A DNA stretch of 63,611 nucleotides. Source: Candidatus Bathyarchaeia archaeon (GTDB taxonomy: Archaea > Thermoproteota > Bathyarchaeia > Bathyarchaeales > DTEX01). The notes beneath the pieces are model-generated. The model had not been told where the DNA came from, ran no database searches, and was given only the letters and a program-made list of their open reading frames with translations. The translations under genes and the position numbers were made by a program. Positions within the stretch are counted from its first letter, which is position 1. Each line of letters starts with the position of its first letter. This document shows positions 9,853 to 44,230 of this stretch, piece after piece. The stretch covers positions 1-63,611 of the forward strand of contig JAWAXL010000002.1 of assembly GCA_038820405.1 (NCBI GenBank), given 5' to 3'.

Positions 9853-9860
9853 ATTATTCT

Positions 9861-10145: not shown

Positions 10146-10155
10146 GCAATCACCT

Positions 10156-10308: not shown

Positions 10309-10310
10309 AA

Positions 10311-10649: not shown

Positions 10650-10664
10650 CAGTGCACACCCCTA

Positions 10665-11135: not shown

Positions 11136-11241
11136 TAATTCTCTTTCACTAATTTGAAATCTATCTTAAATACTTATTTACTATTCTCTCCAATACTAAT
11201 TTAAAGCCTATCCTTCATTCTAATTTACTAATTTTTTAGGC

Positions 11242-12623: not shown

Positions 12624-12642
12624 TAGAGATACGGAAACCTTT

Positions 12643-26565: not shown

Positions 26566-26620
26566 ATCATTTAATTTATATGGTCCCTGTTGATAGCATT
26601 AGCGATATATTTAAGTATTA

Positions 26621-26653
26621 TTAATCGTAAAAATATTTACGATTAATCGTAAA
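26621..26653. promoter_or_regulatory. Operator-like palindrome upstream of dtxR-feoAB
   Basis: TTAATCGTAAA (26621-31), AATA spacer, TTTACGATTAA (26636-46) form perfect 11-bp inverted arms. A third direct copy TTAATCGTAAA lies at 26643-53. The site ends 15 nt before the ATG at 26669. An AT-rich TATA-like stretch lies at 26606-20. Confidence 0.6.
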
Positions 26654-26668
26654 TAGGTTTAAATTAGA

Positions 26669-27325: not shown

Positions 27326-27339
27326 CAGATTAATTCTAG

Positions 27340-27606
27340 GTGATCTGCTTGGAGGTCCCGCTGACCGAGTTGAGGGAAGGTGATACCGGAGTAATCACTA
27401 AAATAGTGGTTGGTTTAGGTCATGGATGGTGCTGGGCTCATGGAATTAGAAAAAGACTTGCAGACATGGGATTGACGCCAGGGACTAAGGTCACCGTTAT
27501 TAGATCTGCCCCACTTAATGGGCCAGTTGAGATTTATGTTAGGGGCTATAAGCTCGCCATCAGTAGAGAGGTCGCTGAAAGGATCTTTGTGGAGGTTCAG
27601 AGATGA
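27340..27606 (+). CDS. feoA: Ferrous iron transport protein A
   Basis: LTELREGDTGVITKI...RLADMGLTPGTKVTVIRSAPLNGPVEIYVRGYKLAISREVAERIFV. GTG start. Confidence 0.85.
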   Translation: MICLEVPLTELREGDTGVITKIVVGLGHGWCWAHGIRKRLADMGLTPGTKVTVIRSAPLNGPVEIYVRGYKLAISREVAERIFVEVQR

Positions 27607-29547
27607 ATGGAGAAGAGGATCAAGGTTGCGTTAGCTGGGAATGCAAATGTTGGGAAGTCGGTGATATTTAATCAATTGACTGGCATCCACCAGCATATTG
27701 GCAACTGGCCTGGAAAGACTGTTGAAAAAGCTGAGGGAACCCTCCATTTTAAGGGCTATATAATTGACATAATTGATTTACCAGGAATATATTCACTATC
27801 AACTTTTTCACTAGAGGAACTAATCTCTAGAGAATATATAGTCAGCGAGAAACCGGATGCTGTGATAAACGTTATTAATGCATCCGTCCTAGAGAGGAAC
27901 CTTTTCTTCACACTCCAGCTAATGGAGCTTAAGACACCATTGATTATAGCCCTTAATCAGATAGATGTTAGTGAAAGAAAAGGGATAAAGATAGATTATA
28001 AGAGACTTGAAGAGATATTGGGAGTACCGGTTGTTCCAACGATCGCCATTAGAGGCAAAGGTATACATGAACTATTATGTGCTATAATTGAGGGTTTTGA
28101 GGGAGACTTTAGGAAACCAAATCCCATAAGATACGGTAGCGAGATCGAGACAAGAATACAGAAGTTAGAAGAGGCTTTGAGGGGCGCCGATTTAAAATAT
28201 CCACTTAGATGGGCTGCTATAAAGATTCTTGAGGGTGATGAGGAAGTTATAAAAGAAGTTAGGAGAGTGAGACCTGAGGCTCTAACATTAGCTGAGAAAC
28301 TAGCTAGAGAAATTGAGGAGATACATGGTCACCCCTGTCCAACAGTGATTGCCTCAGAGCGATATGATATTGCTGGAAAAATTGCTAGAGAGGTTCAGCA
28401 GATTCTACCAGCCATAAAAGTTCCGTTAAGTGATAGGATAGATAGTCTGACGACACATAAAATATATGGTTATATTGTGATGGCCGGAATACTCCTAACA
28501 ATTTTCTATACAATTTTTAGCTTCGGCAGTCTTCTCTCAGATCTTCTTACTAGAATATTTTCTAGCTATGAGGTGATTTTCGAAACAATTTTTGAATCAG
28601 GGTTATTAAAAGATCTGATTTGGGGCGGACTCTTAGAGGGAATTATATCAACAATAACGATAGCATTACCATATATAATTCCGTTTTATCTAATACTTTA
28701 CACCTTAGAGGATTCCGGTTATCTTACCCGAATAGCCTTTCTAATGGATGTATTCATGCATAAAATTGGATTACACGGCAAAGCCTTTATCCCTTTGATA
28801 CTCGGCTATGGATGCAATGTGCCAGCATGCTTAGGCTGCAGAATAATGGAGACCAAAAGGGAAAGGCTCATAGCGGGCTTCGTAGCCACGCTGATTCCAT
28901 GCACAGCACGCACTATTGTGATACTTGGGCTAGTTGGGAGATACCTTGGGATAGGATGGGCCCTATCCTTATATATAATAGATTTGGCTATCGTGTTACT
29001 CTTAGGTAAAATAGCATTTAAAGTTCTTCCGGGGGAAGCGATGGCACTTATAATGGAGATGCCGGAATATAAGGTACCGCACTTGAAGACTGTCGTCAAA
29101 CAAACATGGTTTAGGTTAAAGGAGTTCTTAGAAATAGCCTTACCCCTAATAGTTGTTAGTGGTTTAGTGATTGAGGCGATGAAATCCTTTGGCGTATTAC
29201 CTATTTTATCAGAAGCAATAAGCCCAATAATCGTAGCCTGGCTCGGATTGCCTGAAGTAGTTGGTGTATTGCTAATATTTGGCGTCTTAAGGAAAGAGCT
29301 CACTCTAGTGTTACTTGCAGATCTACTTGGCACAGAAAACATTCCTAGGTATTTTACATCGCTCCAAATGTTCACATTCTCACTAGTTATAATGCTTTAT
29401 GTGCCTTGCATTGCAACTATAGCTGCGTGCGTTAAAGAGTTTGGTTGGAGGAGGGCAATAATAATAGCAGTTATTGAAATCTCATTCGCAATTCTTATAG
29501 GAGGTCTAACCTCCAGGATTTTCGCAATGCTGAAGATGCTCGGATAA
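27607..29547 (+). CDS. feoB: Ferrous iron transport protein B
   Basis: G domain [20 protein letters not shown] and NQID, followed by a polytopic membrane domain. 646 aa. Confidence 0.95.
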
Positions 29548-29634: not shown

Positions 29635-30750
29635 CTAAATTAGCCTAGGTACTGTCTTCTGCATGGTTAGCGCCCATATTCTACATGTCCCCTCTATCCC
29701 AACCATACATGAACCTATTGGTCTTTGCGGCGTACAGGTTTTCATAAACAATGAGCATTCTATGGGCTTTATCTTTCCTATTATGACTAGGTGGCACTGA
29801 CATCCCGGTGGAATATCCCTTCCTCCTTCGACCCTAATGCTGTATCTCTCATGAGCATCATATTTTAGATATTCTTCCCTAAGCGCAAATGTTGAACCTG
29901 GTATTCTGCCAAGCCCACGCCAATTTCCACTAACAATCTTGAAGGCCCTTTTCATTAACTCCTTAGCTTTAATGTTACCCTCCCACCTCACAGCCCGCCT
30001 ATACTCATTCACTAGGGATGCTGTGCGGTTTTTAATCTGCTTTAAAGCCGCACATATTGCAAGTAGAACATCTATTGGCTCGAACCCAGCCACAACCGTT
30101 GGCATCCGATAAACCTTTGGGAATACCTCATATGGTTCTAAGCCTATAATTGTACTTACATGCCCGGGTGCTATGAAGGCATCTATATACAGGTCACCTA
30201 TCCCCAGCATAAGCTCCATGGCTGGCGGGATAAGCCTATGGGATATTAGGAAACTAAGATTCTCTGGAGGCTTCTTGAGTATTTCATAGGCTGTTGATGG
30301 CGCAGTCGTCTCAAAACCTATTGCAAAGAAGACGAAATCTTTATTTGGTTCTTTTTCAGCTATCCTTACAGCATCCATAACACTATAAACTATACGGACA
30401 TCCGCACCTTTAGCCTTAGCATCAATTGGGGACAGCTGCGAGCCCGAAACCCTAGCGACATCACCAAAACATAGAAGCGTAGACCCACCTAACGCTATCT
30501 TGATTGCTTCATCCACCTCAGAGGCTGGCACAATGCATACTGGACAGCCTGGTCCAGCTATGACGTCAACGTTACCAGGCAATAAACTCCTTATGCCATA
30601 ATGTGATATAGTCCATTCATGCGTTCCACATATATGGCAGATCTTTATGATCTCATTTTTAGGCGTGATCTCATGTATTTTTTCAATTATTCTCTTGGCG
30701 AGAATTGGATCTCTAAAGCCCTTCCAGAACATCTTCTCGCTCCTCTTCAA
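29635..30750 (-). CDS. hypD: [NiFe]-hydrogenase maturation protein HypD
   Basis: CHICGTHEW, GPGCPVC, GFETTAPS and PGHVS motifs. Overlaps the hypC stop. Confidence 0.93.
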   Translation of the reverse strand: MKRSEKMFWKGFRDPILAKRIIEKIHEITPKNEIIKICHICGTHEWTISHYGIRSLLPGNVDVIAGPGCPVCIVPASEVDEAIKIALGGSTLLCFGDVARVSGSQLSPIDAKAKGADVRIVYSVMDAVRIAEKEPNKDFVFFAIGFETTAPSTAYEILKKPPENLSFLISHRLIPPAMELMLGIGDLYIDAFIAPGHVSTIIGLEPYEVFPKVYRMPTVVAGFEPIDVLLAICAALKQIKNRTASLVNEYRRAVRWEGNIKAKELMKRAFKIVSGNWRGLGRIPGSTFALREEYLKYDAHERYSIRVEGGRDIPPGCQCHLVIIGKIKPIECSLFMKTCTPQRPIGSCMVGIEGTCRIWALTMQKTVPRLI

Positions 30751-30958
30751 CCTCTAAAATCTCTCTCCATAATCTTAGAGTCTCCTCGGCCTCCTCCTTA
30801 TCCAAGACCTGTATCGCATAACCAGCATGAACAAGAACATAGTCGCCAACCTTAGCATCAACTAGCGAAACATTTGCCTCCCTGATTACGCCGCCAAAAT
30901 CAACTTTAGCTAAATCTCCGTTTACCTCAATAATCCTCGCGGGAACAGCTAGACACAT
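30713..30958 (-). CDS. hypC: [NiFe]-hydrogenase maturation protein HypC
   Basis: N-terminal MCLAVPARIIEV with the essential Cys2. OB-fold size (81 aa). Confidence 0.92.
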   Translation of the reverse strand: MCLAVPARIIEVNGDLAKVDFGGVIREANVSLVDAKVGDYVLVHAGYAIQVLDKEEAEETLRLWREILEVEEEREDVLEGL

Positions 30959-31028: not shown

Positions 31029-33311
31029 TCATCGCTGGAAGAACGCTGCTATAGTTACTTGCCCAAGGGATAAGCCACCATCCCCAGGAGGTACCGCTTC
31101 ATGAACAAAGAAGTTTAGTCCATTATTCTCAACAACCCCGCGCATCATCCCGGCGATTATCTGATTGCATGCGACTCCCCCTGTAAAGCCTACATTCTTT
31201 ATATTATGCTCTACTGCCAGGTTAATGGCTAACTGAGCTAATCCTATAGCTAAATAGGAATGAACAGAGTAGGCTAAATCCCTATTAGGATAATTGTTTC
31301 TCTTCTCAAATAGTGAGACTATCATCTCGGTTGTGTTTAGTTCTGTGCCGCTGATCTGCGGCTTAAGATCAATTGCATTTCTTCCGTGAGTTGCCGCCGA
31401 CTCAAGCTTCATTGCCGGCTCTCCCTCATATGTCCTCTCATAGCATATACCCAAGATTGCTGAGGCTGCATCCAAGACTCTACCACAGCTTGTGGTTTTC
31501 ATCTTTACTCCACCCTTCCTAAGATACGACAGTATTATTTGTGCCTCTCTGGCACCATGAGGTAGGTGGGAGCTATTCTTCATGAGCCAATCTCCTATAT
31601 TTATGCGCTTAGAAAGTATGCCAGCCGCCATCCTAAGCGGATACTTTGTGGCCATATCGCCCCCAAGAAGCGGCTGCTCTTCTAAATGACCTAAGCGTTT
31701 AAATTCTGGCGGATCTAATGAGCCAAGTATTATCTCCCCGCCCCACGCACCCCCATCCTCACCATATCCATAGCCGTCACAACATATGGCTATAATCTCA
31801 TTTAAGCCATGTTCAGCCATTAGGGCTGCCACGTGAGCATAGTGGTGCTGGACTTGGAGTATCTGCCAACCATACTCCTCTGAGAGTCTCTTAGCCAACA
31901 TCGTCGTAGCGAACTTTGGATGCAGATCACATGTAACTACCTCAACATTACAGTTTGTTAAGCGTATCAGTCTTTTAGATGCGGATTCGAGGAACTCTAA
32001 GGTTTCAAGGTTCTCAACATCTCCTATATGCTGTGATAAAAAGGCTTTGCCGCCAATTATGATGCACGCAGTGTTATTCTCTTCGCCTCCAAGCCCAAGT
32101 GCGCAACGCCTGGCCCTAAACTTCAGCCTGATTGGTTCCGGTGCATATCCTCTTGACCTTCTTATAAAGACAAATTTGTCATCATGTAGGCGTAGAACTG
32201 AATCATCACATCTATGAGCTATCCGCCTATTATGCAGCAAAAAATAATCTACTAGACCACGTAATCTTCTAAACGCCTCGCTATCATCCTTAACTATTGG
32301 CTGGTTTGGGGGATTGGCGCTGGTCATAACGAGGGCTGGGTCTGAAATCTGGTCAAAGAGCATGTAATGTAATCCAGAGTATGGGAGCATAACGCCAATA
32401 TTGTGTAGGCCAGGAGAAATAAGCTCAGACAAATAATAATTTTCGCTTTTCTTTAGTAGAACTATTGGTCGTGCATATGATTTTAAAACTGCCTCCTCCC
32501 TTGGGCTAACTTCAGCGAAAGTTTTCACAGCTTCTAGGCTCTTAGCCATTATTGCAAAGGGCTTCTGCTCTCTATGCTTAGCCATCCTTAACCTTTTAAG
32601 CGGTTCATCAAGGAGCGCTGAGGCAGCTATATGGAAACCTCCATAACCCTTCACCGCAACAATATATCCCTCTGAAACGATCTTTCCAGCCTCCCTAATT
32701 GAATCTGCGCACTCAACTCTTACACCATCAGCGTCCACCAGGTACGCCTTTGGACCACATCTTGGACATGCAACCGTTTGCGCATGAAATCTTCTGTTAA
32801 GTGGATCCACATATTCTGATCTGCAGAAGTCACACATCTGAAAGTCTCGCATCGTAGTATTCTCCCTATCATATGGAACATCTTCAATTATTGTATATCT
32901 TGGTCCGCAATTCACGCATGTTATAAAGAAATAATTGTATCTTGGGTTAGAGGGGTCGCGCATCTCCATAAGGCATTCTTCGCATATGGCTATGTCTGAG
33001 GGTATGATTGAACCAGATAGCTCTGACTCATCAGAGCTCTTGGATATCTCAAAACCCTTATAATCTTCTTCAGTCCCCTCAACCGACGTTGTTATAATTT
33101 CATGTATTCTGGCATGCGGAGGTTTCTTCTCGACAAGATCTCTCAGAAAACTCTTTATATTTTCATCTTCGCCATCAACAACTATCTCTACACATGAGTC
33201 TCCTCTATTCTTAACATAGCCTTTTAAGTGATTCTTGATGGAAATCCTATATATGAATGGGCGAAAGCCAACTCCTTGAACTATGCCCGAAACAATTATT
33301 TTTAAACGCAT
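31029..33311 (-). CDS. hypF: Carbamoyltransferase HypF
   Basis: Acylphosphatase VQGVGFRPF, four CxxC zinc-finger pairs (CEECLMEM, CVNCGPRY, CDFCRSEY, CPRCGPK), and YrdC-like plus Kae1-like domains. 760 aa. Confidence 0.95.
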   Translation of the reverse strand: MRLKIIVSGIVQGVGFRPFIYRISIKNHLKGYVKNRGDSCVEIVVDGEDENIKSFLRDLVEKKPPHARIHEIITTSVEGTEEDYKGFEISKSSDESELSGSIIPSDIAICEECLMEMRDPSNPRYNYFFITCVNCGPRYTIIEDVPYDRENTTMRDFQMCDFCRSEYVDPLNRRFHAQTVACPRCGPKAYLVDADGVRVECADSIREAGKIVSEGYIVAVKGYGGFHIAASALLDEPLKRLRMAKHREQKPFAIMAKSLEAVKTFAEVSPREEAVLKSYARPIVLLKKSENYYLSELISPGLHNIGVMLPYSGLHYMLFDQISDPALVMTSANPPNQPIVKDDSEAFRRLRGLVDYFLLHNRRIAHRCDDSVLRLHDDKFVFIRRSRGYAPEPIRLKFRARRCALGLGGEENNTACIIIGGKAFLSQHIGDVENLETLEFLESASKRLIRLTNCNVEVVTCDLHPKFATTMLAKRLSEEYGWQILQVQHHYAHVAALMAEHGLNEIIAICCDGYGYGEDGGAWGGEIILGSLDPPEFKRLGHLEEQPLLGGDMATKYPLRMAAGILSKRINIGDWLMKNSSHLPHGAREAQIILSYLRKGGVKMKTTSCGRVLDAASAILGICYERTYEGEPAMKLESAATHGRNAIDLKPQISGTELNTTEMIVSLFEKRNNYPNRDLAYSVHSYLAIGLAQLAINLAVEHNIKNVGFTGGVACNQIIAGMMRGVVENNGLNFFVHEAVPPGDGGLSLGQVTIAAFFQR

Positions 33312-33334: not shown

Positions 33335-34222
33335 TTAGGTGCTTAAAATCTTCTTTAGGATTTTTGTGGGCTTCACGCGTAGTTCCTCAAAGCCTATTTC
33401 CTCCGGATTCATCCCCATTGCTAAGCCGAGAAGCTGTGTGTAATGTAATACTGGAATGTCATATTTTTCGCCAAACATCCTCTCAGCCCGCAATTGATTC
33501 GCATCATACATTATATGGCAGCCTGGACAAATAGTTATTAATGCATCTGCGCCAGCCTCCTTAACATGTACGAGTTTCTCTCTAACTAGGGATAGTGATA
33601 TTTTTTCATCTAAAGCGGCTACTGTTGAACCACAGCACTCAGTCTCCCCTAGGTACTCGACAGACTTTGCCCCAGTAGCACTAATTAGCATTTTCAGAGC
33701 TCTCGGATTTTCAGGATCCTCAAATCCAATATATTTCCTCGGCCTTGAGAGATGACAACCACTATGCCCAGCGACCCTAAGATTCTTAAGCGGTCTGGTG
33801 ATTGCTCTCCTAATATTGTCAATGCCAATATCCTCAATCATAACTTGTGATATATGCTTAACTTCCGTGCCTTCCTTAAACTCTAGGCCAGTCTTTCTCA
33901 TATGATCGTTAATCTCCTCCCTAAGCGCCTTATTCTCTTTAAGAGCCCTTCTAGTCTTCTTTAATGTACCAGCGCAGCCGGGACAGAGGGCCAAAATATT
34001 TAAGCCAGTCTGCTCCGCCACAGCAAGGTTTCTCGCGGAAAGGATGAGCATTATCTCGTGGCTTAATGGTTCAAGTGGGAGACCACAACAATTGAATTCC
34101 GGCATCTCAACTAATTCCACACCAAGCTTATCTAAGACTTTCCTAGCAGATATCTCGTAAGAAGAAAGCCTATATGGGATAACGCAACCCAAATAAACTA
34201 GGTATTTTTTGCTCATACCCAT
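33335..34222 (-). CDS. HdrB-like protein with two CCG domains (copy 1)
   Basis: First repeat LGCVIPY...FNCCGLP...LCPGCAG. Second repeat HSGCHLSRP...ECCGST...ICPGCHIMY. Start overlaps the HdrC-like stop by 10 nt. Confidence 0.85.
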   Translation of the reverse strand: MGMSKKYLVYLGCVIPYRLSSYEISARKVLDKLGVELVEMPEFNCCGLPLEPLSHEIMLILSARNLAVAEQTGLNILALCPGCAGTLKKTRRALKENKALREEINDHMRKTGLEFKEGTEVKHISQVMIEDIGIDNIRRAITRPLKNLRVAGHSGCHLSRPRKYIGFEDPENPRALKMLISATGAKSVEYLGETECCGSTVAALDEKISLSLVREKLVHVKEAGADALITICPGCHIMYDANQLRAERMFGEKYDIPVLHYTQLLGLAMGMNPEEIGFEELRVKPTKILKKILST

Positions 34223-34764
34223 ACATCAGTCTCCCCATGTTTCTCATAAGCTCCCTTAAGGAATTTCTCAACACCTATGCCTTCAAGGGACTTATTTAAG
34301 CTCTCAATATTAGCTTTCGGCAGCGGTGGGAGGTTAAGAGTCCCCCGCCTCTTAATCCTCGATTCAGGAATTTCATATACATAACCGGTCTTAATCAAGT
34401 TGCCTAAAAGGACTTTAAAGACTTCAGGTATCCGCCCCTCCATCACAGCCATGTTTTTCAGGATTCTTATTATACTTGCAACTTCAATACCTTGAGGGCA
34501 TCTGTCGGTGCAAGTGAAGCATGAGGCACAGAGCCATATAAAGCCGCTGCTTAAAACTTTTTCCTTTAGCCCCAACTGAGCCATCCTGATGATCTTTCGT
34601 GGTCTATATTCATCACTAAACCTTGCAATGGGGCAGTCAGATGTACATGTTCCACATTGGAAGCATTGCAGAAGCTTTTCTCCACCTGGCATCTTAACGA
34701 CTTCATACTTAAACTTTGGATCTATCCTAGATACTAATACATCTTTCCCGACCACTTCAGACAA
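34213..34764 (-). CDS. HdrC-like 2x[4Fe-4S] protein
   Basis: CFQCGTCTSDCP and CASCFTCTDRCP with HdrC-like spacing. TTG start 7 nt after GGAGG. Confidence 0.8.
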   Translation of the reverse strand: MSEVVGKDVLVSRIDPKFKYEVVKMPGGEKLLQCFQCGTCTSDCPIARFSDEYRPRKIIRMAQLGLKEKVLSSGFIWLCASCFTCTDRCPQGIEVASIIRILKNMAVMEGRIPEVFKVLLGNLIKTGYVYEIPESRIKRRGTLNLPPLPKANIESLNKSLEGIGVEKFLKGAYEKHGETDVWV

Positions 34765-34858
34765 TTTTAGTCCTCCTTAAATATGGAACTTCTCAACATT
34801 TATCTTAATTAAAGAAAAAGAGAGGGTGGAATAAAAATATGCCTATTTTTTCAACATG

Positions 34859-35764
34859 CTAAAGTCTTCTAATCTTCTCTGAGAGACTTGTGAGAAGACT
34901 CTTTGCCCTCCTTATATTATCTATTTTCCTCCTACAATTTATGCACACTTTCATTGCACTTGATATATTGTCACTAAAGACTTTGTATGCTGGAATCTTC
35001 TCCTCAACAACGCGCTTTAACGCCCAATTTATCTGCTTCTCTGGGAAAAATGTCCCACCACATATAGCGCAGGTAAGCAGATCAACATCATTCTCTACTC
35101 TAGTGGTTTGCGGGTCATTTGTTAATAAGTGGTATGTTCCAGTAAGCTTTATTGCCTGCGTTGGGCACTCATCCTGACAGAAGGCACAGAATGTACAGTG
35201 GGAATATTTGACCCTAATAATCCTCTTTTCAGGTCCATCAATAACATCTATCGCATCCCCCGTGCAGATTTGGGAGCATGCACCACATCCAATACATTTC
35301 TCCTTATCGATTTCATGTCTCCCACGGAAGCCCTCAGGAGTTTTCCAGAAATCCTCCTTCTCCTCACTCTTCACACCAAGTATGTCGGCAACGGCTTTAA
35401 TAATGGCTTGTGGGCGGGGCGGGCATCCAGGAATATAATAGTTAACTGGCACAAGTTTATTTGGTGGGCCAACTATTGGGTAACCTTTCTCGAAGATATT
35501 CGCTGTTATTGAACAGTTCCCCACGGCAATTACTATTTTAGGCGGGTTTATTTTCTCATAGACCTCTAGTAGGAAATCCTTACCTTTAACTGTCCCGGCA
35601 CCACTTAAGATTAGAACATTTGCCTTCTCTGTTTCCTCGACAACTTCAACCCCTAAGTTAGCAAGCCCATATCTCGGGGCAAGACACTCTAGGATCTCAA
35701 CATCGCAGGCGTTGCAGCCAGCGGAGAGGAAACGGTAAACGGAAATCTTAGCCACATAAATCAC
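34859..35764 (-). CDS. [NiFe]-hydrogenase small subunit (NuoB/EchC-like) fused to a 2x[4Fe-4S] ferredoxin domain and a C-terminal four-Cys tail
   Basis: NuoB-type cluster ligands GCNACDVE, GNCS and PGCPPRP. Then CIGCGACSQIC and CTFCAFCQDECP. Then CAICGG...CINCRRK. Confidence 0.85.
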   Translation of the reverse strand: MIYVAKISVYRFLSAGCNACDVEILECLAPRYGLANLGVEVVEETEKANVLILSGAGTVKGKDFLLEVYEKINPPKIVIAVGNCSITANIFEKGYPIVGPPNKLVPVNYYIPGCPPRPQAIIKAVADILGVKSEEKEDFWKTPEGFRGRHEIDKEKCIGCGACSQICTGDAIDVIDGPEKRIIRVKYSHCTFCAFCQDECPTQAIKLTGTYHLLTNDPQTTRVENDVDLLTCAICGGTFFPEKQINWALKRVVEEKIPAYKVFSDNISSAMKVCINCRRKIDNIRRAKSLLTSLSEKIRRL

Positions 35765-35782
35765 CTCCCAACTACTTTAGGG

Positions 35783-36901
35783 CTATAACCCTCTCCTCTT
35801 CCCAGTCTTAACATCAACAACCGTAACGCGGTCAGTGCAAGCGAAGCATGGATCTATGCTTTCTATCACCGCCCTAGCGTTCTTAAGAATCTCCCCCTTG
35901 AGCATTGCGAGTATAGCAAAATTGTTAGCATATGAGGGAGTTCGGACCTTAACTCTCTCAGGAATATTGGTTCCATTAGACCTAATATAGTAGATCAGCT
36001 CACCACGCGGGGCCTCTGTTCTACCAATTTCCTCGCCAACTCTAGGCTCACCTGGCTTCACGGCGATATCTCCCGGTGGGAGATTATCTAGAGATTGCTC
36101 AATGATCTTCATGCTCTCATACGTCTCCCTAGCCCTGACGAGACTTTTTGCGCGGAGGTCTCCATCCCTCTCGACTATAACCTCCCAATCGAGCTTATCA
36201 TAGGCTGCATATGGGTCATCCTTTCTTACGTCGCTGGCTACTCCAGAAGCCCTTAACACCGGACCTACGGCGCCGACTTCTATAGCCTTGTTCCTTGGTA
36301 GAACTCCCACCCCTTTAGTCTTCTTAGTGAAGAGTCCATTGTCATCTAAGAGCGACATAATATAGTCTGAGAGGGGTTTAAGGGTTCCCAGGACCTTTCG
36401 TATCTTCTTAGCCTTTTCTGAAGTAATATCCCTGCGCACGCCCCCAATAGTGTTTATAGTGTAGTTGATTCTATTCCCAGTTAAATATTCGAGTAGATCC
36501 TGAATTATCTCCCTCTCGCCCATTATTTTAGCAAATACTTCGTGCTCATGTAGAGTGTGAGCCAGTATACTGAACCATAGATAGTGGCTGTGCAGGCGCT
36601 CAAGCTCCATATATATACATCTTAGATACTTAGCTCTCTCTGGAACCTCTATGCCCATTAACCCCTCAACGGTCTGAACATAGCATAGTGTGTGTATCCC
36701 ACTACATATACCACATATTCTCTCAGCTAAGGCTATATTTTGCATATAGGTCCTTGTGGTGAAGAGCTTCTCTATGCCCCTATGCATGTATCCAAGCTCC
36801 ATCTTAGCATCAATTATTCTATCTCCCTCAACCAGGAGCTCAAAACGCTCGGGCTCAACTAGCTGCGGGCGATATGGGCCAATATAAACCTTCTCAGGCA
36901 T
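35783..36901 (-). CDS. [NiFe]-hydrogenase large subunit, group 4 (Ech/Mbh/FHL-like)
   Basis: N-terminal Ni-ligand motif RICGICSGIH and C-terminal DPCFACTDR, followed by a 14-aa extension (VTVVDVKTGKRRGL) of the kind removed by a HycI-type protease. 372 aa, NuoD-like body. Confidence 0.9.
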   Translation of the reverse strand: MPEKVYIGPYRPQLVEPERFELLVEGDRIIDAKMELGYMHRGIEKLFTTRTYMQNIALAERICGICSGIHTLCYVQTVEGLMGIEVPERAKYLRCIYMELERLHSHYLWFSILAHTLHEHEVFAKIMGEREIIQDLLEYLTGNRINYTINTIGGVRRDITSEKAKKIRKVLGTLKPLSDYIMSLLDDNGLFTKKTKGVGVLPRNKAIEVGAVGPVLRASGVASDVRKDDPYAAYDKLDWEVIVERDGDLRAKSLVRARETYESMKIIEQSLDNLPPGDIAVKPGEPRVGEEIGRTEAPRGELIYYIRSNGTNIPERVKVRTPSYANNFAILAMLKGEILKNARAVIESIDPCFACTDRVTVVDVKTGKRRGL

Positions 36902-36904
36902 AAA

Positions 36905-37789
36905 TTACACCCCCAACCTCTTAACTAATTGTGGAACGGGACTCCTATGGAATTCTATGAGCAGCTCCTTAGATGGAACGCCAAATGACAAGGCTAGTAG
37001 CTCCATGAGATTTAGACATGGAACATTGAACTGGATTCTATGCGACTTCAGCATCACTTGGCCGAGCTCAAATTGTATTATACATGCTGGGCAAGCTGTG
37101 ACTACGGCATCCGCGCCAGCGCTAGTAATCTTACTGAGCTTTCTGGCCAACCTCTCCTTAAGTGAGAATTCCTCATCTGCCTGCATACTCGGGTATCCGC
37201 AGCACATACGCTCAAGACCGTAATCCACTATCTGGGCCCCTGTCCATTCAACTATTTCTCTCATCATATGTGGTTTTCGCATTATGTCAGTGCTTTTATA
37301 CTCACGGTGGAGGTGGCAGCCATAATGTAATGCGACACGGATATTCAGCGGCTTAATTACTGAACCCTTAATCTTAGCTAAGCCGACATCCTCATGGAGA
37401 ACCTCAATAACATGCTTAACATCTATCTTACCCTTATATTCCTTGCCATACTTCCTAATAACCTCATTGACTTTACTCCTTTTCTCCGCATCGTGCTTAA
37501 GAATCTCATTTGCCTCGGCCAGAGTTTCGTAGCAGCCGTTACATAAGATCATCATGTCTAGGTCTAGTTCCTCAGCCAATGTTAAGTTCCTCGCAGATAT
37601 TATAAGCGCAGCATCCTCGTTAACTAGGCGGGATATTACAGGTTCAGGACAACAGGAGTATCCTAGTAAATCAACAGCCTCTATGTTAAGCCTCTTGAAA
37701 ACCTTCCTCGTGGCTACCTCAATGTTGGGTAAGCGCATTGGGATCTGGCAGCCGAGGAAGAGGACATATTTAACCATGTCCATCACCAC
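36905..37789 (-). CDS. HdrB-like protein with two CCG domains (copy 2), embedded between NuoC-like and large subunit genes
   Basis: First repeat LGCQIPM...YSCCPEP...LCNGCYETL. Second repeat HYGCHLHRE...MCCGYP...ACPACIIQF. The start codon shares 1 nt with the upstream stop (TAATG). Confidence 0.85.
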   Translation of the reverse strand: MVMDMVKYVLFLGCQIPMRLPNIEVATRKVFKRLNIEAVDLLGYSCCPEPVISRLVNEDAALIISARNLTLAEELDLDMMILCNGCYETLAEANEILKHDAEKRSKVNEVIRKYGKEYKGKIDVKHVIEVLHEDVGLAKIKGSVIKPLNIRVALHYGCHLHREYKSTDIMRKPHMMREIVEWTGAQIVDYGLERMCCGYPSMQADEEFSLKERLARKLSKITSAGADAVVTACPACIIQFELGQVMLKSHRIQFNVPCLNLMELLALSFGVPSKELLIEFHRSPVPQLVKRLGV

Positions 37790-38472
37790 TACTTATACCT
37801 GAGCTTCTTCTTCCCCCAATCAAATCCGATTCTCTCACTCATACCAGAAGCTTTGATGACGTCATGATATTCTCCTAGAATCTTCTCATCCGTGAATGGG
37901 AAGGGTGCGGATTTCAATAAACCAATCTCCTCACGCTTCTTCTGAACAAAGGCTGATATCGGGGCCACACAACCACTAGATATCAAGGCCTCGACGACGG
38001 GTCTAGCCTTTGATGGTAAAATACCCTCAAAGGGTCTCTTTAGCGGCCTTTTATCTTCAGGCCAATCCTTAATTAGCACTAGGCCAGCCGGCTCTGGTTC
38101 TGGGTGATTGATAAGTTTGATCCCAAATAGGTCTGAGATCTCCCTCTCAATGAAATTTGCGGCTGGAACAAGATCTGCTATTGAGTCAAGTATAGGTTCC
38201 TCTTTCGGCCTTAAACTTCTGAGAGTTAGGATAATACCATTGATGTGAAAGTGGTATAGATATTCCATGTCTAAGCCATTGTCTATCGCGGAGAGCGTTA
38301 TGAAGCGTATATCCATATACTTATCCACTAGGGTTTTTATAGCCTTTCTAACGGCTGCTGGCTTAACCTCAGCGAATATTCTCCTCTCACGCTGTCTATA
38401 AAGCTTTATTAAATCGTCCCCTAAAACCTCCCTCAAGTAATTCATTATTCTAGATTCTATCGGCAAAACCAT
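37789..38472 (-). CDS. NuoC/EchD-like 30-kDa subunit
   Basis: FITLSAIDNG.DMEYLYHF...LVPAANFIEREISDLFGIKL is typical of NuoC-family hydrogenase subunits. Confidence 0.8.
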   Translation of the reverse strand: MVLPIESRIMNYLREVLGDDLIKLYRQRERRIFAEVKPAAVRKAIKTLVDKYMDIRFITLSAIDNGLDMEYLYHFHINGIILTLRSLRPKEEPILDSIADLVPAANFIEREISDLFGIKLINHPEPEPAGLVLIKDWPEDKRPLKRPFEGILPSKARPVVEALISSGCVAPISAFVQKKREEIGLLKSAPFPFTDEKILGEYHDVIKASGMSERIGFDWGKKKLRYK

Positions 38473-38475
38473 ATG

Positions 38476-38961
38476 CTACACCTCAAGATACCGTTTTTTA
38501 TTAAACTCCCAAGCCTCCTTCCTTAAGGTAACCCTAATTGCTTGAGGGGAGCAGAATTTCGCACACTTGGGGTCACCGTCACAGAAGTTGCATTTTATGG
38601 TGATACGTCGTTCAGGGTTAAACCATGGGGCCGATAATGGGCAGGTAACGGTACACGTCTTGCATCCAATGCACCTCAGCGGGTTTATCTTCACTAGACC
38701 CGTTACCTCATCTTTCACGGCCGCCTCATTTGGGCATACCGCGACACATAAGGGCTCGTCGCAATGCTGGCAGTAGATCGCCTCAAATTCTCCAGTCTTC
38801 TCATCAAATATTATTCGTAAGTTTACCTTCTCTAAGCCAATCTCCCTGAAGTGCTGATAGGAACAAGCGATCTGGCAAAAGAGACAACCAGTACATTTGG
38901 TAGGATCATATAGAAGAACTTTTTGTTCAGATGTGCTGGCTTTCATGGGCTCTTTCCTCAA
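38476..38961 (-). CDS. HycB/HydN-like polyferredoxin (four Cys clusters)
   Basis: CTGCLFCQIACS, CQHCDEPLCVAVCP, CIGCKTCTVTCP and CNFCDGDPKCAKFCSP. Confidence 0.85.
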   Translation of the reverse strand: MRKEPMKASTSEQKVLLYDPTKCTGCLFCQIACSYQHFREIGLEKVNLRIIFDEKTGEFEAIYCQHCDEPLCVAVCPNEAAVKDEVTGLVKINPLRCIGCKTCTVTCPLSAPWFNPERRITIKCNFCDGDPKCAKFCSPQAIRVTLRKEAWEFNKKRYLEV

Positions 38962-39046: not shown

Positions 39047-39568
39047 GTGTCCATAAAAATTCGATTGATGTTGATCGAAAATGAGCTTAAATCTTGGCTG
39101 AGTGGGTATCAAAAACTCATTATTCTTGGAGTCGGCAATCCTCTTAGAGGAGACGATTCCTTGGGATTGGCAATCTTAAAGAGAATAAGGAGGAAGGTTC
39201 CAGAAAATACTAAGATAATATATGGTGGCATAGCCCCAGAAAATTTTATTAGTAAAATGAAAATGTTTAAGCCGTCGCATGTCCTTATAATTGACGCAGC
39301 CCTCTTCGGCGGAGAACCTGGTGAGGCTAGGCTTATTTTATCTGAGCAGATACCTGATATTACCGTATCCACACATGCCATACCACTTAACCTACTGGCA
39401 TGGTTAATTCAAAAGGAAACTAATGCAAAAATTGCTTTACTGGGAATCGAACCGAAAAATCTTGGTTTAGGGGAGGGAGTTAGTCGAGAGGTTAGAGAGG
39501 CTATTGAGAAGTGCGCCAGAATGTTAATAGATGTAATAAATGGAGGCCGAAACATGACTGTAATTTAA
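39047..39568 (+). CDS. hycI: Hydrogenase maturation endopeptidase (HycI-type)
   Basis: ILGVGNPLRGDDSLGLAI plus a downstream D/H metal ligand pattern (IIDAALFG, STHAIPL). Divergent from the hydrogenase operon. The start is uncertain: GTG at 39047 or ATG at 39068. Confidence 0.85.
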   Translation: MSIKIRLMLIENELKSWLSGYQKLIILGVGNPLRGDDSLGLAILKRIRRKVPENTKIIYGGIAPENFISKMKMFKPSHVLIIDAALFGGEPGEARLILSEQIPDITVSTHAIPLNLLAWLIQKETNAKIALLGIEPKNLGLGEGVSREVREAIEKCARMLIDVINGGRNMTVI

Positions 39569-40356
39569 ACAAAATGCATTAATTCAGTAAGGCTTGGCAT
39601 ATGGATGAAAAAGCACACATATAGGGAAAGAATAAGTATCATAACTGAGATTAAAATGAAAAGATAATCTTTCATGCCAATTTTAAGTGAGTATAAGTTT
39701 GTACGCTTTTTTGATGCACCCCAAGCTCTGGACTCCATGGCCTCAGCAAGCTCCATGCTCCTTCTTATAGCGCTGACTATGAGTGGTATCAAGATTGGTA
39801 TATAATTCCTTGTTCTTTTTATGAAGTTTCCCTGCTCAAGTTCTAATCCGCGTGCCTTCTGAGCATCCATTATTGTCTGCGCCTCCTCAGCCAAAACTGG
39901 GACGAAGCGGATAGCTGTCGTGAACGCGAAGCAGAACGTGTATGGGACTCCCATCTGCTCTAGGGATAAACCGAGCATGTCTGGGGAGGTGGTTGCAAAA
40001 AATATTGAGAAGGACTCAATTAAGATAAGGAATCTAAGAGTCATAGCTAGAGAATGTTCTATAATTGGTGCCAAGGATGGATAACCGCCGTAAAAGTGTA
40101 GTGAAACAGTATTTGCGATAAAAATTATTGCCGCGAAGAATATTGAGCCCCTCATTAGACGTATCCATTCTCTCTTAATCCTAGCTATTATGACCAGTGG
40201 CATCTGAGAGAAGAATAGTATTAGGAGCGGCATCAACCGAACGAATAACACTGCTATAGCAAAGAAGACGCACACGTATAAAAACTTGGCTCTTGGGTCG
40301 ATCCTATGTATTGGCGAAGAAATATTCCTAAACCTTAAGCCCTCAAATATGCTCAT
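39565..40356 (-). CDS. ecfT: ECF transporter transmembrane (T) component, CbiQ/EcfT family
   Basis: Polytopic, with the conserved cytoplasmic helices containing DAQKARGLEL. Stop overlaps the hycI stop region. Coupled to two ECF ATPases. Confidence 0.82.
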   Translation of the reverse strand: MSIFEGLRFRNISSPIHRIDPRAKFLYVCVFFAIAVLFVRLMPLLILFFSQMPLVIIARIKREWIRLMRGSIFFAAIIFIANTVSLHFYGGYPSLAPIIEHSLAMTLRFLILIESFSIFFATTSPDMLGLSLEQMGVPYTFCFAFTTAIRFVPVLAEEAQTIMDAQKARGLELEQGNFIKRTRNYIPILIPLIVSAIRRSMELAEAMESRAWGASKKRTNLYSLKIGMKDYLFILISVMILILSLYVCFFIHMPSLTELMHFV

Positions 40357-41180
40357 TACACAACCCTGCCGCGAAACCTCTCGATAATTAAACGCTTAGC
40401 TTCGTATACCCCTAGAACTTTTCTTGGGAAGCCTAGATCATTGAGTCTCATGAATACTTGTGTTATCTCAGGCGGTATTAGGGATGCTTCCTTCATTAAG
40501 GCTGGGTCGGTAAGAGCCTCCCTAGCATCTCCGTCAGCGATTATCCTACCACTAGCCATAAGGATTATCCTCGGCTCACACTCAGCGACAAACTCTATAT
40601 CATGTGTCACCACTATTACAGTCTTGCCCTGCTGGTTCAGATGGGCTATAAAGTGCCGGAGTTTTTCCTTCTGGTATGCATCCTGCCCTATAGTTGGCTC
40701 ATCAAGTATCAGTATTTTTGGGTCCCATGCTAATACTGATGCTAAGGCAACTCTCTTCCTCCCCCCACCACTAAGCATGAATGGTGAAGTTTTACGATAT
40801 TGCGTTAAATCTAGGAGGTTGAGCGCCCAATCAACCCTCTCCTTGATTGTCTCTTCGTTAAAACCAAAGTTCTTCAGAGCAAAGGCAATTTCCTCCTCAA
40901 CTGTTTCGCTAAATAGTTGGTGATCTGGATTCTGAAAGACGAAACCTACTTTTCTGGCAAGCTGGGCTACACTAACGCTCCTCGTATCGACACCATCTAC
41001 CAACACTCTTCCTTTAGTTGGCTTTAGTAAACCAATAAAGTGCTTAACTAGTGTAGTTTTGCCCGCTCCGTTCTGCCCCATTATTGCGACAAACTCTCCA
41101 TCAGCTATTTCAACTGATACTCCCCTAAGGGCCTCGACGCCACTAGGATATATAAAGTAAACATCCTCAGCCTCTATCAA
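40356..41180 (-). CDS. ecfA: ECF transporter ATPase component
   Basis: Walker A GQNGAGKTTL, signature LSGGGRKRVALA, Walker B ILILDEPT. Confidence 0.9.
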   Translation of the reverse strand: MIEAEDVYFIYPSGVEALRGVSVEIADGEFVAIMGQNGAGKTTLVKHFIGLLKPTKGRVLVDGVDTRSVSVAQLARKVGFVFQNPDHQLFSETVEEEIAFALKNFGFNEETIKERVDWALNLLDLTQYRKTSPFMLSGGGRKRVALASVLAWDPKILILDEPTIGQDAYQKEKLRHFIAHLNQQGKTVIVVTHDIEFVAECEPRIILMASGRIIADGDAREALTDPALMKEASLIPPEITQVFMRLNDLGFPRKVLGVYEAKRLIIERFRGRVV

Positions 41181-42021
41181 GTTTAAGCACCTCCATAATC
41201 AGTTCAGAGGTCTCATCGGGGCTTAGTGGAACTTTGCCGAGTTCAACTCCATCCTCCCTTAATGCATGATAGAGCCTAATAACCTTCGGTATCCCAACGC
41301 CAACTAACCTAATTCTATCATCTAAAAAGACTTTTTTCGGCTCATCATCTATGATGATGCGACCTCGATCCATAATAATGATACGACTGGCATATTTAAC
41401 GGCTAGATCTAATCTATGCTCAACAAGTATTACCGTCTTTCCCAGCTCCAAATTCAGCTGATGGATAGTTTCTAGGATATTTCTGGCGCTTAATGGATCG
41501 AGGAATGATGTGGGCTCATCTAGTACAATGATCTCGGGCTGCATTGCGAGGACTGACGCTATGGCCACCCTCTGCTGCTGCCCACCAGAAAGCTCAAATG
41601 GAGCCTTATCCCTTAAATTATATATTCCAGTAACCTTTAATGCCCATTCAACTCTCCTTCGAATCTCGTCTCTAGGAAGGCCGAGATTTTCCAGCCCAAA
41701 GGCCACATCCTTCTCCACTGTTAGGGCGAACAGCTGGTTCTCTGGGTTCTGAAAGACTAAACCAACGTGCTTTGCAAGCTCGTAAATGGGATGCTCCGTC
41801 GTTTTTAATCCGACGACTATTACCTCGCCCTTAAGCCTACCACCATAGAAGTGTGGTATAAGTCCATTAAAGCATCTACAAAGCGTAGTCTTCCCGCACC
41901 CACTAGGACCAGTAAGAAGGACGAACTCCCTTCTTTCAATCGCCAAATTTATATCCTCAATCGCCGTCTTCTCGGAGTTTGGGTATATATATGATAGGTT
42001 TCTTGCCTCAAGGATTGTCAA
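41167..42021 (-). CDS. ecfA: ECF transporter ATPase component
   Basis: Walker A GPSGCGKTTL, signature LSGGQQQRVAIA, Walker B IIVLDEPT. Confidence 0.9.
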   Translation of the reverse strand: MTILEARNLSYIYPNSEKTAIEDINLAIERREFVLLTGPSGCGKTTLCRCFNGLIPHFYGGRLKGEVIVVGLKTTEHPIYELAKHVGLVFQNPENQLFALTVEKDVAFGLENLGLPRDEIRRRVEWALKVTGIYNLRDKAPFELSGGQQQRVAIASVLAMQPEIIVLDEPTSFLDPLSARNILETIHQLNLELGKTVILVEHRLDLAVKYASRIIIMDRGRIIIDDEPKKVFLDDRIRLVGVGIPKVIRLYHALREDGVELGKVPLSPDETSELIMEVLKLDRG

Positions 42022-42158: not shown

Positions 42159-43169
42159 ATGATTGATGGTTGTTCCCCTTTGAGGATCAAATGGGAGAAT
42201 GGAATATCCATAGAGTATGAGGAAAGCAAGGTAGTTTTTGACTTCCAGTCTAGGGTCCTGAATTGTAGGGCTTCGTTTGTAACCCACGCGCACGCAGATC
42301 ACGCGTACTCCTTTAGGCTTAGACAGATACCAGTATTCTCATCTGAGGAAACTATGAAGCTGATCTCGGCACATGGTGTTAAGGCTAATAGGTGGCAGCC
42401 CCTAGCCATAAACAGGAGGGTGAAGATAGACGATATAGAAGTGGTGCCCCATTCGTCAGGCCACATCCTTGGCTCATATGAGTTTGAAGTGCACATGCCT
42501 GATGGAATAGTCCTATTTACAGGTGACCTTAACACTAGAGAGGAGAGGCTCATAAAGCCAGCTGAACCAGTAAAGTGTGATATACTTATTATTGAGGCGA
42601 CATACGGATCACCCGAGTTTATTTTTCCATCAGATAAAGATGTTACAGAAGATATGATTAGATGGGCAGAAGAAGTGTTAAGCAAGGGTAAGATTCCAGC
42701 ATTTCAGGCAGACGCTATTGGAAACTCTCAGGAGGTAATAAGAATCTTTAATGAGAATACTGGTATACCAGTTATATCCCACTGGAAAGTTTCAATGGTT
42801 AATAAGATTTACGGGAGCTATGGACTTAGGATAGACTATATTGATATTAATTCTAAGGAGGCTTCTGAACTCATCTCTAAAACAGACGCTGTAATCGTTG
42901 CCCCAAAGGAACCAAGTTTATTCTCAAATGACAGATTTGCACTGGCAGTAGTTTCAGGGTGGGCTATAAAATTTAAACGTAGATCTTTTCCCCTAAGTGA
43001 CCATGCAGACTTCCCAAGCCTGCTAGAATTCATCAAAGAATGTAGCCCAAAGCTAGTCTTAACATACCATGGCGGAGAACATAATAAAATTCTAGCCAGG
43101 TATATTGAGAAAAAGATGGGGGTAAGGTCCTACCCAATCAACCTAATACCGACAAACTTCTCGATCTAA
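42159..43169 (+). CDS. MBL-fold / beta-CASP-like hydrolase (probable nuclease)
   Basis: Metallo-beta-lactamase motif THAHADHAYS, later SGH and GD, C-terminal SDHAD. The size (336 aa) resembles short beta-CASP exonucleases. Confidence 0.6.
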   Translation: MIDGCSPLRIKWENGISIEYEESKVVFDFQSRVLNCRASFVTHAHADHAYSFRLRQIPVFSSEETMKLISAHGVKANRWQPLAINRRVKIDDIEVVPHSSGHILGSYEFEVHMPDGIVLFTGDLNTREERLIKPAEPVKCDILIIEATYGSPEFIFPSDKDVTEDMIRWAEEVLSKGKIPAFQADAIGNSQEVIRIFNENTGIPVISHWKVSMVNKIYGSYGLRIDYIDINSKEASELISKTDAVIVAPKEPSLFSNDRFALAVVSGWAIKFKRRSFPLSDHADFPSLLEFIKECSPKLVLTYHGGEHNKILARYIEKKMGVRSYPINLIPTNFSI

Positions 43170-44193: not shown

Positions 44194-44230
44194 ATCAAGT
44201 CTCACCACGTAGGAGACTATACCATCTTTT

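Follow-up and report, generated by a model that had tools for sequence, protein, structure and literature searches.

We analysed a 63.6-kb window of one hot-spring-type Bathyarchaeia genome, the window being the whole stretch of DNA examined here, and found in it a [NiFe] hydrogenase cassette that joins the catalytic module of a group-4-type enzyme to an HdrB-like subunit and has no membrane arm. The conserved unit comprises five genes, which encode, in order, a HycB-like ferredoxin, a NuoC-like subunit, an HdrB-like subunit (HdrB2 in the window), a group 4 large subunit and a small subunit in which NuoB and HycF are fused. From its sequence features, we read the cassette as a putative cytoplasmic H2:disulfide oxidoreductase that would neither pump ions nor carry out flavin-based bifurcation, a reading to which we give somewhat better than even chances. 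The original prediction, made from the letters of this window, had not recognised the architecture as a named hydrogenase class. It belongs to an already named family, the HdrB-associated group 4 hydrogenases (Drh, Ehd, Ehe and the Asgard groups 4l and 4q), which is known from genome predictions. What is new here is a membrane-free branch, as the described HdrB-associated group 4 complexes all keep at least a NuoH-like subunit, and a search of the open-access literature returned no description of the membrane-free clade as such.

To place the cassette among its relatives, we compared it with homologous loci (numbered with the prefix L) from genomes and metagenomes. A metagenome scan seeded with the embedded type of HdrB gave 77 callable loci, in which HdrB is 50–85% identical to that of the window. 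HdrB is followed by the large subunit in 73 of 73 of these loci, and the large subunit by the small subunit in 56 of 59 assessable ones; the small subunit has the fused form (at least 260 aa, about 300 aa) in 54 of those 56. Upstream, NuoC precedes HdrB (67/73) and the ferredoxin precedes NuoC (52/55). NuoH-, NuoL- or NuoN-like genes were found in none of the 77 metagenomic loci, and NuoH- or antiporter-like genes lie in or beside the operon in none of about 15 Bathyarchaeia and Hadarchaeia genome loci. The NuoH-like and antiporter-like (NuoL/Mrp) membrane genes that belong to the group 4 definition are thus lacking from both sets of loci and from the window. Because the HdrB–large subunit junction is universal among the assessed loci and membrane genes are absent throughout, the embedding of a CCG-domain gene inside the hydrogenase operon and the missing membrane arm, both of which had been predicted from the window, are family-wide traits and not a quirk of one contig. 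The gene arrangement is also far beyond chance, since it was found again in more than 90 independent loci.

Within genomes, the five-gene order is kept in Bathyarchaeia (L001–L008 and L085–L089), with no adjacent membrane genes, whereas the Hadarchaeia loci L009 and L030 have NuoC, HdrB, the large subunit and the fused small subunit without the ferredoxin gene. In L086 and L087, the cassette stands between unrelated flanks. The nearest relatives of the window large subunit come from Bathyarchaeia metagenome-assembled genomes (up to 94% identity), and more than 120 clusters at 90% identity lie at 72% identity or above to it. A scan of a genome collection returned at least four close Bathyarchaeia and, among the matches listed, no Methanocella or Methanomethylicia. 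Two further loci deserve mention. The Hadarchaeales locus L009 (positions 253–10759) has, on the strand of its membrane-free cassette and about 2 kb upstream of it, a membrane-bound Mbh-type cluster (NuoL-like, NuoC, large subunit, NuoH, NuoI), with minus-strand genes between the two. An NC10 bacterium (L011, positions 7164–12753) has a large subunit about 50% identical to that of the window together with a Fer4_11 ferredoxin and no membrane genes nearby; no HdrB was detected there, at a locus whose high GC content makes ORF (open reading frame) calls unreliable.

The membrane-free enzymes also stand apart in phylogeny. An earlier neighbour-joining (NJ) tree was ambiguous and was repeated with curated taxa and bootstraps (29 large subunits, 374 columns, 100 replicates). 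In 98 of 100 replicates, all membrane-free HdrB-linked large subunits (from Bathyarchaeia, Hadarchaeia and unassigned metagenome contigs) formed a single clade, and in 75 of 100 so did the membrane-bound HdrB-linked ones; the two sets were joined in 3 of 100 replicates of this tree, which left out authentic Ehd, Ehe, Drh (Methanocella) and HydDB reference sequences. The window large subunit is 74–78% identical to other Bathyarchaeia members of its clade, 43–47% to the Hadarchaeal members, 44–51% to membrane-bound HdrB-linked (Ehd/Drh-like) proteins and 43–49% to ordinary Mbh-type ones, and its nearest outside representative, from an exhaustive search of 50%-identity representatives, is 55% identical. 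A sequence correlate accompanies this split: the segment WARKKSPWI, which precedes the first cluster Cys in NuoB of the membrane-bound HdrB-linked enzymes, is missing in the soluble clade, where the first cluster Cys is residue 13–17. In complex I-type enzymes, it is the corresponding N-terminal part of NuoB that touches NuoH; loss of this segment together with the NuoB–HycF fusion fits a true loss of membrane docking. The tree places the soluble forms in an old, well-supported clade rather than among scattered losses.

These observations bear on the possibility that the cassette encodes the peripheral arm of a membrane complex and that genes in another part of the genome supply its NuoH- and antiporter-like subunits, perhaps in common with an Fpo-like or Mbh-type complex. 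Fpo-like/Hfo complexes are common in Bathyarchaeia, the Hadarchaeales genome mentioned above has NuoL and NuoH close to its soluble cassette, and the genome in view here is 63.6 kb only. The consistent absence of membrane genes in or beside the operon across the metagenomic and genome loci, the fusion of the NuoB and HycF domains, the missing N-terminal NuoB motif of membrane-bound relatives and the age and support of the soluble clade all weigh against such an arrangement, which we consider improbable. Hydropathy agrees with the predicted lack of polytopic proteins, with none among the products of the five cassette genes and the two genes behind them (0/7); the highest 19-aa mean is a borderline 1.62, in the C-terminal extension of the NuoC-like subunit (residues 158–176).

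The individual subunits carry the cofactor ligands expected of a complete hydrogenase arm with an HdrB end. Our ORF list reproduced the predicted gene coordinates, strands, order and junctions, and Pfam and NCBIfam profile searches bore out the domain calls, including the Ni-site motifs and the HycI-type protease (Table 1). From the ferredoxin gene to hypF, the junctions are +3, −1, +3, +18, +94, −10 and +23 nt. The large subunit is NuoD-like and has both signature motifs of group 4, L1 (C[GS][ILV]C[AGNS]xxH) and L2 ([DE][PL]Cx[AGST]Cx[DE][RL]; PMC7886697), as RICGICSGIH at residue 61 and DPCFACTDR at residue 350, with C63, C66, C352 and C355 as Ni–Fe ligands; these Cys are invariant. Its closest solved relatives are MbhL (6CFW, E = 5e-74) and HycE (7Z0S), its homologues are 375 aa long against 372 aa in the window, and a 14-aa C-terminal tail after DPCFACTDR is available for HycI cleavage. 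The fused small subunit begins with a NuoB/MbhJ/HycG domain holding the Cys of the proximal cluster (C17, C20, C84 and C114) and continues into a HycF/NuoI-like 2x[4Fe-4S] domain with a further CxxC...CxxC pair; among solved structures, the N-terminal part resembles MbhJ/HycG and the C-terminal part HycF/MbhN. Further soluble hallmarks of group 4 are present as well: the small subunit is of the NuoB type, with one proximal [4Fe-4S] cluster, and has NuoC- and NuoI/HycF-like partners. Sixteen Cys in four [4Fe-4S] motifs characterize the ferredoxin subunit, which matches Pfam Fer4_11 and NCBIfam models of the HybA/HydN/DmsB type. The NuoC-like subunit ends in an extension of about 70 aa (terminus GFDWGKKKLRYK) that is common to soluble and membrane-bound HdrB-linked NuoC and missing in Mbh-type NuoC, and this extension may be a candidate HdrB dock.

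The embedded HdrB2 and the second HdrB-like protein of the window, HdrB1, each contain two CCG motifs and ten Cys for two non-cubane [4Fe-4S] clusters (C14, 46, 47, 83, 86, 158, 196, 197, 233 and 236 in HdrB2; C13, 45, 46, 80, 83, 156, 196, 197, 232 and 235 in HdrB1). The ten Cys are invariant in the embedded HdrBs of Bathyarchaeia, Hadarchaeia and Asgard archaea, and HdrB2 matches HdrB of the solved methanogen Hdr complexes (8RVU/5ODC) over nearly its full length (E = 3e-71). Against TIGR03288 (HdrB), the two copies score 276.6 and 277.6 bits, under the equivalog cut-off of 345; against TIGR03290 (HdrC), the HdrC of the window scores 113.3 bits, under the cut-off of 160. By these scores, both HdrBs and HdrC are family members that are not assignable to the equivalog specific for CoM-S-S-CoB, the mixed disulfide that coenzyme M (CoM) forms with coenzyme B (CoB). 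It had also been suggested that the CCG proteins could be peripheral membrane or quinone-interacting modules like SdhE, and secondary NCBIfam matches to the MFR anchor SdhE (NF042965) do occur at 123–150 bits. Those scores are about half of what the HdrB models reach (277 bits) and far under the 500-bit cut-off of the SdhE model, both CCG proteins align end to end with solved HdrB and keep the ten cluster Cys, and no SdhA, SdhB or SdhF genes were found in the window, all of which leaves the SdhE-like role very improbable.

We therefore favour a soluble path from H2 to HdrB without a flavin as the most economical reading, because HdrB is embedded, membrane genes are lacking, the clade is separate and WARKKSPWI is missing. 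The product would be a five-subunit cytoplasmic [NiFe] hydrogenase that amounts to a group 4 (Mbh/FHL-type) peripheral arm with a built-in HdrB and no membrane arm. H2 would be split at the Ni–Fe site. Its electrons would first reach the NuoB domain with its proximal [4Fe-4S] cluster, travel from there through the two HycF-type clusters and the four-cluster ferredoxin, and end at the two non-cubane clusters of HdrB, where a putative disulfide or persulfide would be reduced. HdrB would take the place that formate dehydrogenase (FdhF) has on the arm of formate hydrogenlyase (FHL), and the extended C-terminus of NuoC may hold it there. A soluble, flavin-free H2-to-disulfide enzyme had been proposed from the window; the lack of membrane genes, the 98/100 clade and the missing NuoB segment speak for its soluble form, and the reaction is one that we infer.

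Several points count against this reading. The cassette family, Drh and Ehd included, is known from genes alone, and our trees are NJ only and were built without Drh, Ehd and HydDB reference sequences. With 63.6 kb of the genome in view, membrane subunits may be encoded elsewhere, and a borderline hydrophobic stretch does lie within the NuoC extension. The substrate need not be CoM-S-S-CoB, because the HdrB copies fall below the equivalog cut-off (277 versus 345 bits). Nor are most Bathyarchaeia known to produce CoM or CoB. Uncoupled H2-driven reduction of a high-potential disulfide would waste energy, so the direction or the partner may differ from those proposed, and the four-cluster ferredoxin could open another port for electrons, towards ferredoxin or an HdrA complex, for instance.

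Comparison with the named HdrB-linked enzymes shows how the soluble branch relates to them. Drh, the 'disulfide-reducing hydrogenase', is an Ech-Hdr-like enzyme found in Methanocellales, which PMC6046458 and PMC9723716 cite from Lyu & Lu (2015); it is described as lacking an antiporter, as membrane-associated and as having a drhB gene. H2:heterodisulfide activity has been proposed in the literature for the Drh, Ehd and Ehe complexes. Ehd of Methanomethylicia, Ehe of Culexarchaeia, Ehg of Nezhaarchaeia and an 'Ehd-like' clade that includes Bathyarchaeia are all described as membrane-bound, and the Asgard groups 4l and 4q are MBH-like complexes with a peripheral Hdr domain (PMC9723716; PMC12700198; bioRxiv 10.1101/2024.07.04.601786). 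For hot-spring Bathyarchaeia, Qi et al. (2021) reported hdrB2 inside 'fpo-like' operons in which fpoB, D, H and L are always present. Among our own loci, Asgard L010 and Thermoprotei L174 show the order ferredoxin (Fd)-NuoL-NuoC-HdrB-large subunit (LSU)-NuoH-NuoI-NuoB, with further membrane genes in L010, and Bathyarchaeota L173 has a Drh-like Fd-NuoC-HdrB-LSU-NuoH-NuoI-NuoB cluster (L173a) and a second cluster with an antiporter. This last locus (L173, positions 1–12098; GCA_018396415.1) thus holds two divergently arranged HdrB-linked membrane-bound group 4 clusters in one genome, and in the antiporter cluster the large subunit is a NuoC–NuoD fusion and two small unknown ORFs flank hdrB. PF00361 and PF00146 occur in L010, L173 and L174 and are missing from the window clade. 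In the window, L010, L173 and L174 alike, hdrB lies between the nuoC-like and large-subunit genes, and because this order and the NuoC extension of about 70 aa are shared, we take the soluble cassette to have a common descent with the membrane-bound HdrB-linked enzymes.

Drh is like the window cassette in being a group-4-type cluster with an embedded hdrB, no antiporter-like subunit and a proposed direct reduction of a disulfide by H2. It differs in having a NuoH-type subunit (drhB, read as EchB-like by name only; NuoH in L173a) where the window has none; the Drh-like cluster of L173 moreover has separate NuoI and NuoB genes in place of the fused NuoB–HycF, and its large subunit falls in another clade, with Methanocella Drh itself compared by description. 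The Ehd, Ehe, Ehd-like, Ehg and Asgard 4l/4q complexes share with the cassette the core order Fd-(NuoL)-NuoC-HdrB-LSU (as in L010 and L174), the NuoC extension and the ten HdrB Cys. Unlike it, these complexes have NuoH and one or two antiporter-like subunits and are predicted ion pumps, and large subunits of this type, as represented by our membrane-bound HdrB-linked loci, are 48–51% identical to that of the window and group apart from it in the tree. Escherichia coli FHL (HycB-HycF-HycG-HycE, 7Z0S) and Pyrococcus furiosus Mbh (6CFW) have counterparts of the large, NuoB-type small, HycF-type and HycB-type subunits, and HycI-type maturation is common ground too, whereas the window lacks their membrane subunits (HycC/HycD or MbhM/MbhH), has HdrB as substrate module in place of FdhF or free ferredoxin and combines HycG and HycF of FHL in one polypeptide. 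The MvhADG-HdrABC complex of methanogens (group 3c; 5ODC, 8RVU) likewise links H2 oxidation to an HdrB active site, and a related Bathyarchaeia locus, L092, has a full HdrA/MvhD/HdrCB/MvhGA cluster; in the window, by contrast, the hydrogenase module is group 4 and not 3c, and the cassette has no HdrA flavoprotein, MvhD or HdrC, so that a site for flavin-based bifurcation is lacking.

Two further genes, hdrC and hdrB1, follow the cassette in the window, and the original prediction had taken all seven genes together. The five-gene cassette recurs; hdrC-hdrB1 stands directly behind it only in close relatives (L007, L008, L085, L093–L095 and L098), is missing from most orthologous clusters and elsewhere occurs without the cassette. 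The pair is thus a separate, lineage-specific accessory neighbour and not part of the cassette. HdrC is paired with HdrB1 by a 10-nt overlap, and HdrB1 and HdrB2 share only 36% identity. In the 94-nt gap, oligo-T tracts are followed by a TATA-like box (TTTAATTAAGATAAAT) and GGAGG ahead of the TTG start of hdrC, features by which the gap is probably the boundary between two transcription units. This reading of the gap agrees with the indel pattern in L090 and L091, where HdrB1 orthologues are 77% and 73% identical and hycI diverges from hdrC-hdrB-hypF with no hydrogenase cassette; in these loci (L090, positions 8849–13216; L091, positions 8773–13306), no hydrogenase structural genes lie between hycI and hdrC-hdrB-hypF. 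The cassette therefore behaves as an insertion/deletion unit, and it appears to have been precisely inserted or deleted at the hycI/hdrC point.

Searches of the window by tblastn and Pfam found no NuoH, NuoL/Mrp, HdrA, MvhD/FlpD, Mvh, TusA, DsrE or GcvH-like genes, so neither the HdrA flavoprotein nor the MvhD adaptor that accompanies HdrBC in HdrABC systems lies within the 63.6 kb. The predicted lack of an HdrA/Mvh partner thus holds for the window and does not extend to the relatives, in which orthologues of HdrC and HdrB1 end HdrA-MvhD(-MvhG-MvhA) clusters, often beside the cassette. HdrA is next to the orthologous HdrCB, together with MvhD, in L088, L089 and L092. In L092, whose HdrB1 orthologue is 65% identical, hdrC-hdrB sits within an HdrA/MvhD and group 3 cluster in the order PhoU-like, DUF2061, GcvH-like, HdrA, FlpD/MvhD, HdrA (1007 aa), FlpD, HdrC, HdrB, MvhG-like, group 3 large subunit and protease. 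Evolutionarily, hdrC-hdrB1 belongs to the HdrA/MvhD-type Hdr system of these archaea, and it probably acts on the same thiol pool as the cassette.

This neighbourhood raises the alternative that the cassette feeds electrons, as a hydrogenase input module, into a larger Hdr supercomplex with flavin-based bifurcation, docked via MvhD/FlpD-like adaptors to HdrA proteins whose genes lie nearby or in other parts of the genome; the cassette would then play the MvhAG role, and the embedded HdrB and HdrC-HdrB1 would be two disulfide-reducing ends. A GcvH-like-HdrA-FlpD-HdrA(1006 aa)-FlpD-HdrC cluster indeed adjoins the cassette, lying just downstream in L001, L088, L089, L113, L119 and L163 and on both sides in L125, the window HdrC is 62% identical to the HdrC at the end of the HdrA/MvhD (FlpD) cluster of L088, and hdrC-hdrB1 directly abuts the cassette in the window lineage. 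However, HdrA or FlpD was seen in only 7 of the 77 metagenomic loci, many of them on short contigs, the full HdrA cluster of L092 comes with its own group 3 MvhG/MvhA and protease, the window has neither HdrA nor FlpD, and the cassette also occurs with the unrelated flanks noted above. We judge the supercomplex unlikely, if the least so of the alternatives weighed here.

Neighbouring genes offer some clues to a substrate for the proposed H2:disulfide activity. The commonest cassette neighbour is a GcvH-like gene (22/77 metagenomic loci). In the window clade, these proteins have ETWMF in place of the lipoyl-lysine motif ESVKA and an RHH-like N-terminus. Fusions of this RHH-like and GCV_H type, about 200 aa long (...GRYRSISEFVSEAIRLRLEE...), occur at L001:14349–14942, L003:18848–19441, L088:14106–14708, L089:14520–15122 and L092:2805–3413, beside a divergent AbrB/PhoU-like gene and between the hydrogenase cassette and the HdrA/MvhD cluster; from their domain make-up, they may be H-protein-derived regulators. 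Divergent clade members have a GcvH-like gene directly upstream and in divergent orientation that keeps the lysine (L167:6746, 141 aa; L168:8280; L170:5414; L129:1300; L131:794), within LESMKAVSD/LESQKAVSD in L167, L168 and L170 and within LESGKW in L129 and L131; the canonical ES-x-KA-x-SD motif is thus confined to deep-branching loci. We rejected a lipoyl carrier as substrate for the window, whose clade has lost the lysine and which has no such gene; a lipoyl-carrier link to the hydrogenase may have been the ancestral state. On the plus strand, about 14 kb away from the hydrogenase (window 53195–54242), a lipoate-protein ligase is encoded in two parts, Lip_prot_lig_C (94 aa) and then the LplA/B catalytic domain (259 aa); no lipoyl-acceptor gene was seen in the window. 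A second candidate clue came from sulfur-relay genes, TusA-YeeE(Sulf_transp)-DsrE-DsrE-DsrH, which stand beside the cassette in about 5 of the 77 loci (L001, L006, L122, L138 and L163), at L001:4611–6941 and, in L006/L122 and L138, downstream of the small subunit, partly on the same strand immediately after it. As a pointer to a persulfide substrate we rejected them, as they are limited to one Bathyarchaeia sub-lineage and too narrow to generalize.

The lipoylatable neighbours also bear on the direction of the reaction. The cassette could be mainly H2-evolving, a redox valve that conserves no energy and operates at low ambient H2, in which reduced ferredoxin entering via the HycB-like subunit, or a low-potential dithiol entering via HdrB, would be oxidized to H2. 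Mbh and FHL, the closest solved relatives of the large subunit, are H2 evolvers, and a four-cluster HycB-like ferredoxin is the electron entry wire of FHL. A lipoylatable GcvH-like gene lies directly upstream in the divergent relatives L167, L168 and L170, and the potential of lipoamide, about −290 mV, comes close to that of the H2 couple when H2 is low. Yet the GcvH-like neighbours in the window clade have no lipoyl-lysine and carry the RHH-like N-terminus, the window itself has no GcvH-like gene, forming H2 from thiols is unfavourable with most known disulfide couples, and no sequence feature fixes the direction. To such a valve we assign a slightly lower probability than to the bifurcating supercomplex, and H2-driven reduction at HdrB remains the direction that we favour.

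Table 1. Positions of the hydrogenase cassette, the hdrC-hdrB1 pair and the maturation genes in the 63.6-kb window
Feature	Position	Strand	Basis
HycB/HydN-like ferredoxin subunit, 161 aa, cassette gene 1	38476..38961	-	ORF list, Pfam Fer4_11
NuoC-like subunit, 227 aa	37789..38472	-	Pfam Complex1_30kDa
HdrB2 (embedded HdrB-like subunit), 294 aa	36905..37789	-	Pfam CCG x2, TIGR03288
Group-4-type [NiFe] large subunit, 372 aa	35783..36901	-	Pfam Complex1_49kDa + NiFeSe_Hases
Fused small subunit NuoB+HycF, 301 aa	34859..35764	-	Oxidored_q6 + 2x[4Fe-4S] (HycF/NuoI-like)
Intergenic gap, 94 nt, probable boundary of two transcription units	34765..34858	-	Read from sequence
HdrC-like 2x[4Fe-4S] protein, 183 aa	34213..34764	-	Fer4_8/Fer4_17, TIGR03290
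HdrB1 (second HdrB-like protein), 295 aa	33335..34222	-	Pfam CCG x2
hypF, [NiFe] maturation gene	31029..33311	-	ORF list
hypC, [NiFe] maturation gene	30713..30958	-	ORF list
hypD, [NiFe] maturation gene	29635..30750	-	ORF list
HycI-type C-terminal maturation endopeptidase, divergent from the cassette	39047..39568	+	TIGR00142

The gene content around the cassette is archaeal, with RNA polymerase, exosome, proteasome and ribosomal protein genes present in the window. HycI passes the TIGR00142 hycI model (134.7 bits; cut-off 119.1), and the divergent hycI was found again in L085, L086, L088 and L089; the genes with HypF, HypC and HypD Pfam domains are also present in the syntenic loci L085 and L091. 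One flank of the hyp and hydrogenase genes (window 26143–29547) carries NikR, a DtxR-FeoA fusion regulator and FeoB; on the opposite flank (39565–42021) is a transporter of CbiQ with two CbiO-type ATPases and no CbiM/CbiN component in view. Together, NikR, DtxR-FeoA, FeoB, hypDCF, hycI and CbiQ/CbiO2 form a Ni/Fe supply and maturation island. Farther out, on the minus strand (43138–45262), a 343-aa membrane protein of the exosortase/archaeosortase family overlaps the end of a 386-aa protein that has no Pfam match and has hydrophobic segments at its N- and C-termini; this second protein may serve as a sortase substrate.

By definition, group 4 [NiFe] hydrogenases are bound to the membrane and translocate ions, and they are regarded as ancestral to complex I. 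A clade that has lost the membrane arm entirely and has HdrB hard-wired into what is left would show that the peripheral arm can work by itself as a soluble redox module, and would add a path from H2 to a disulfide for which neither bifurcation nor a membrane is required. More tentatively, and with chances that we put short of even, we propose that the membrane-free enzymes are a distinct, ancient and unrecognized soluble group 4 subgroup, widespread in Bathyarchaeia and Hadarchaeia, in which H2 is coupled directly with a non-methanogenic carrier of the thiol/disulfide or protein-persulfide type. At first this carrier may have been a lipoylated GcvH/LbpA-like protein, whose gene still lies upstream of the cassette in deep branches. 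If this is true, the cassette would form a major H2–thiol redox link in archaea that are among the most abundant ones of sediments, and the peripheral arm of complex I and Mbh would be able to function alone. With more than 120 clusters at 90% identity among its close homologues and an occurrence in both Bathyarchaeia and Hadarchaeia, it could matter for H2 and thiol/sulfur cycling in sediments and hot springs. Compared with Ehd or Drh, the cassette is also smaller, soluble and probably easier to work with as a target for establishing what HdrB-linked hydrogenases do, and it could help to tell which disulfide is used by the non-methanogenic archaea that have many Hdr homologues.

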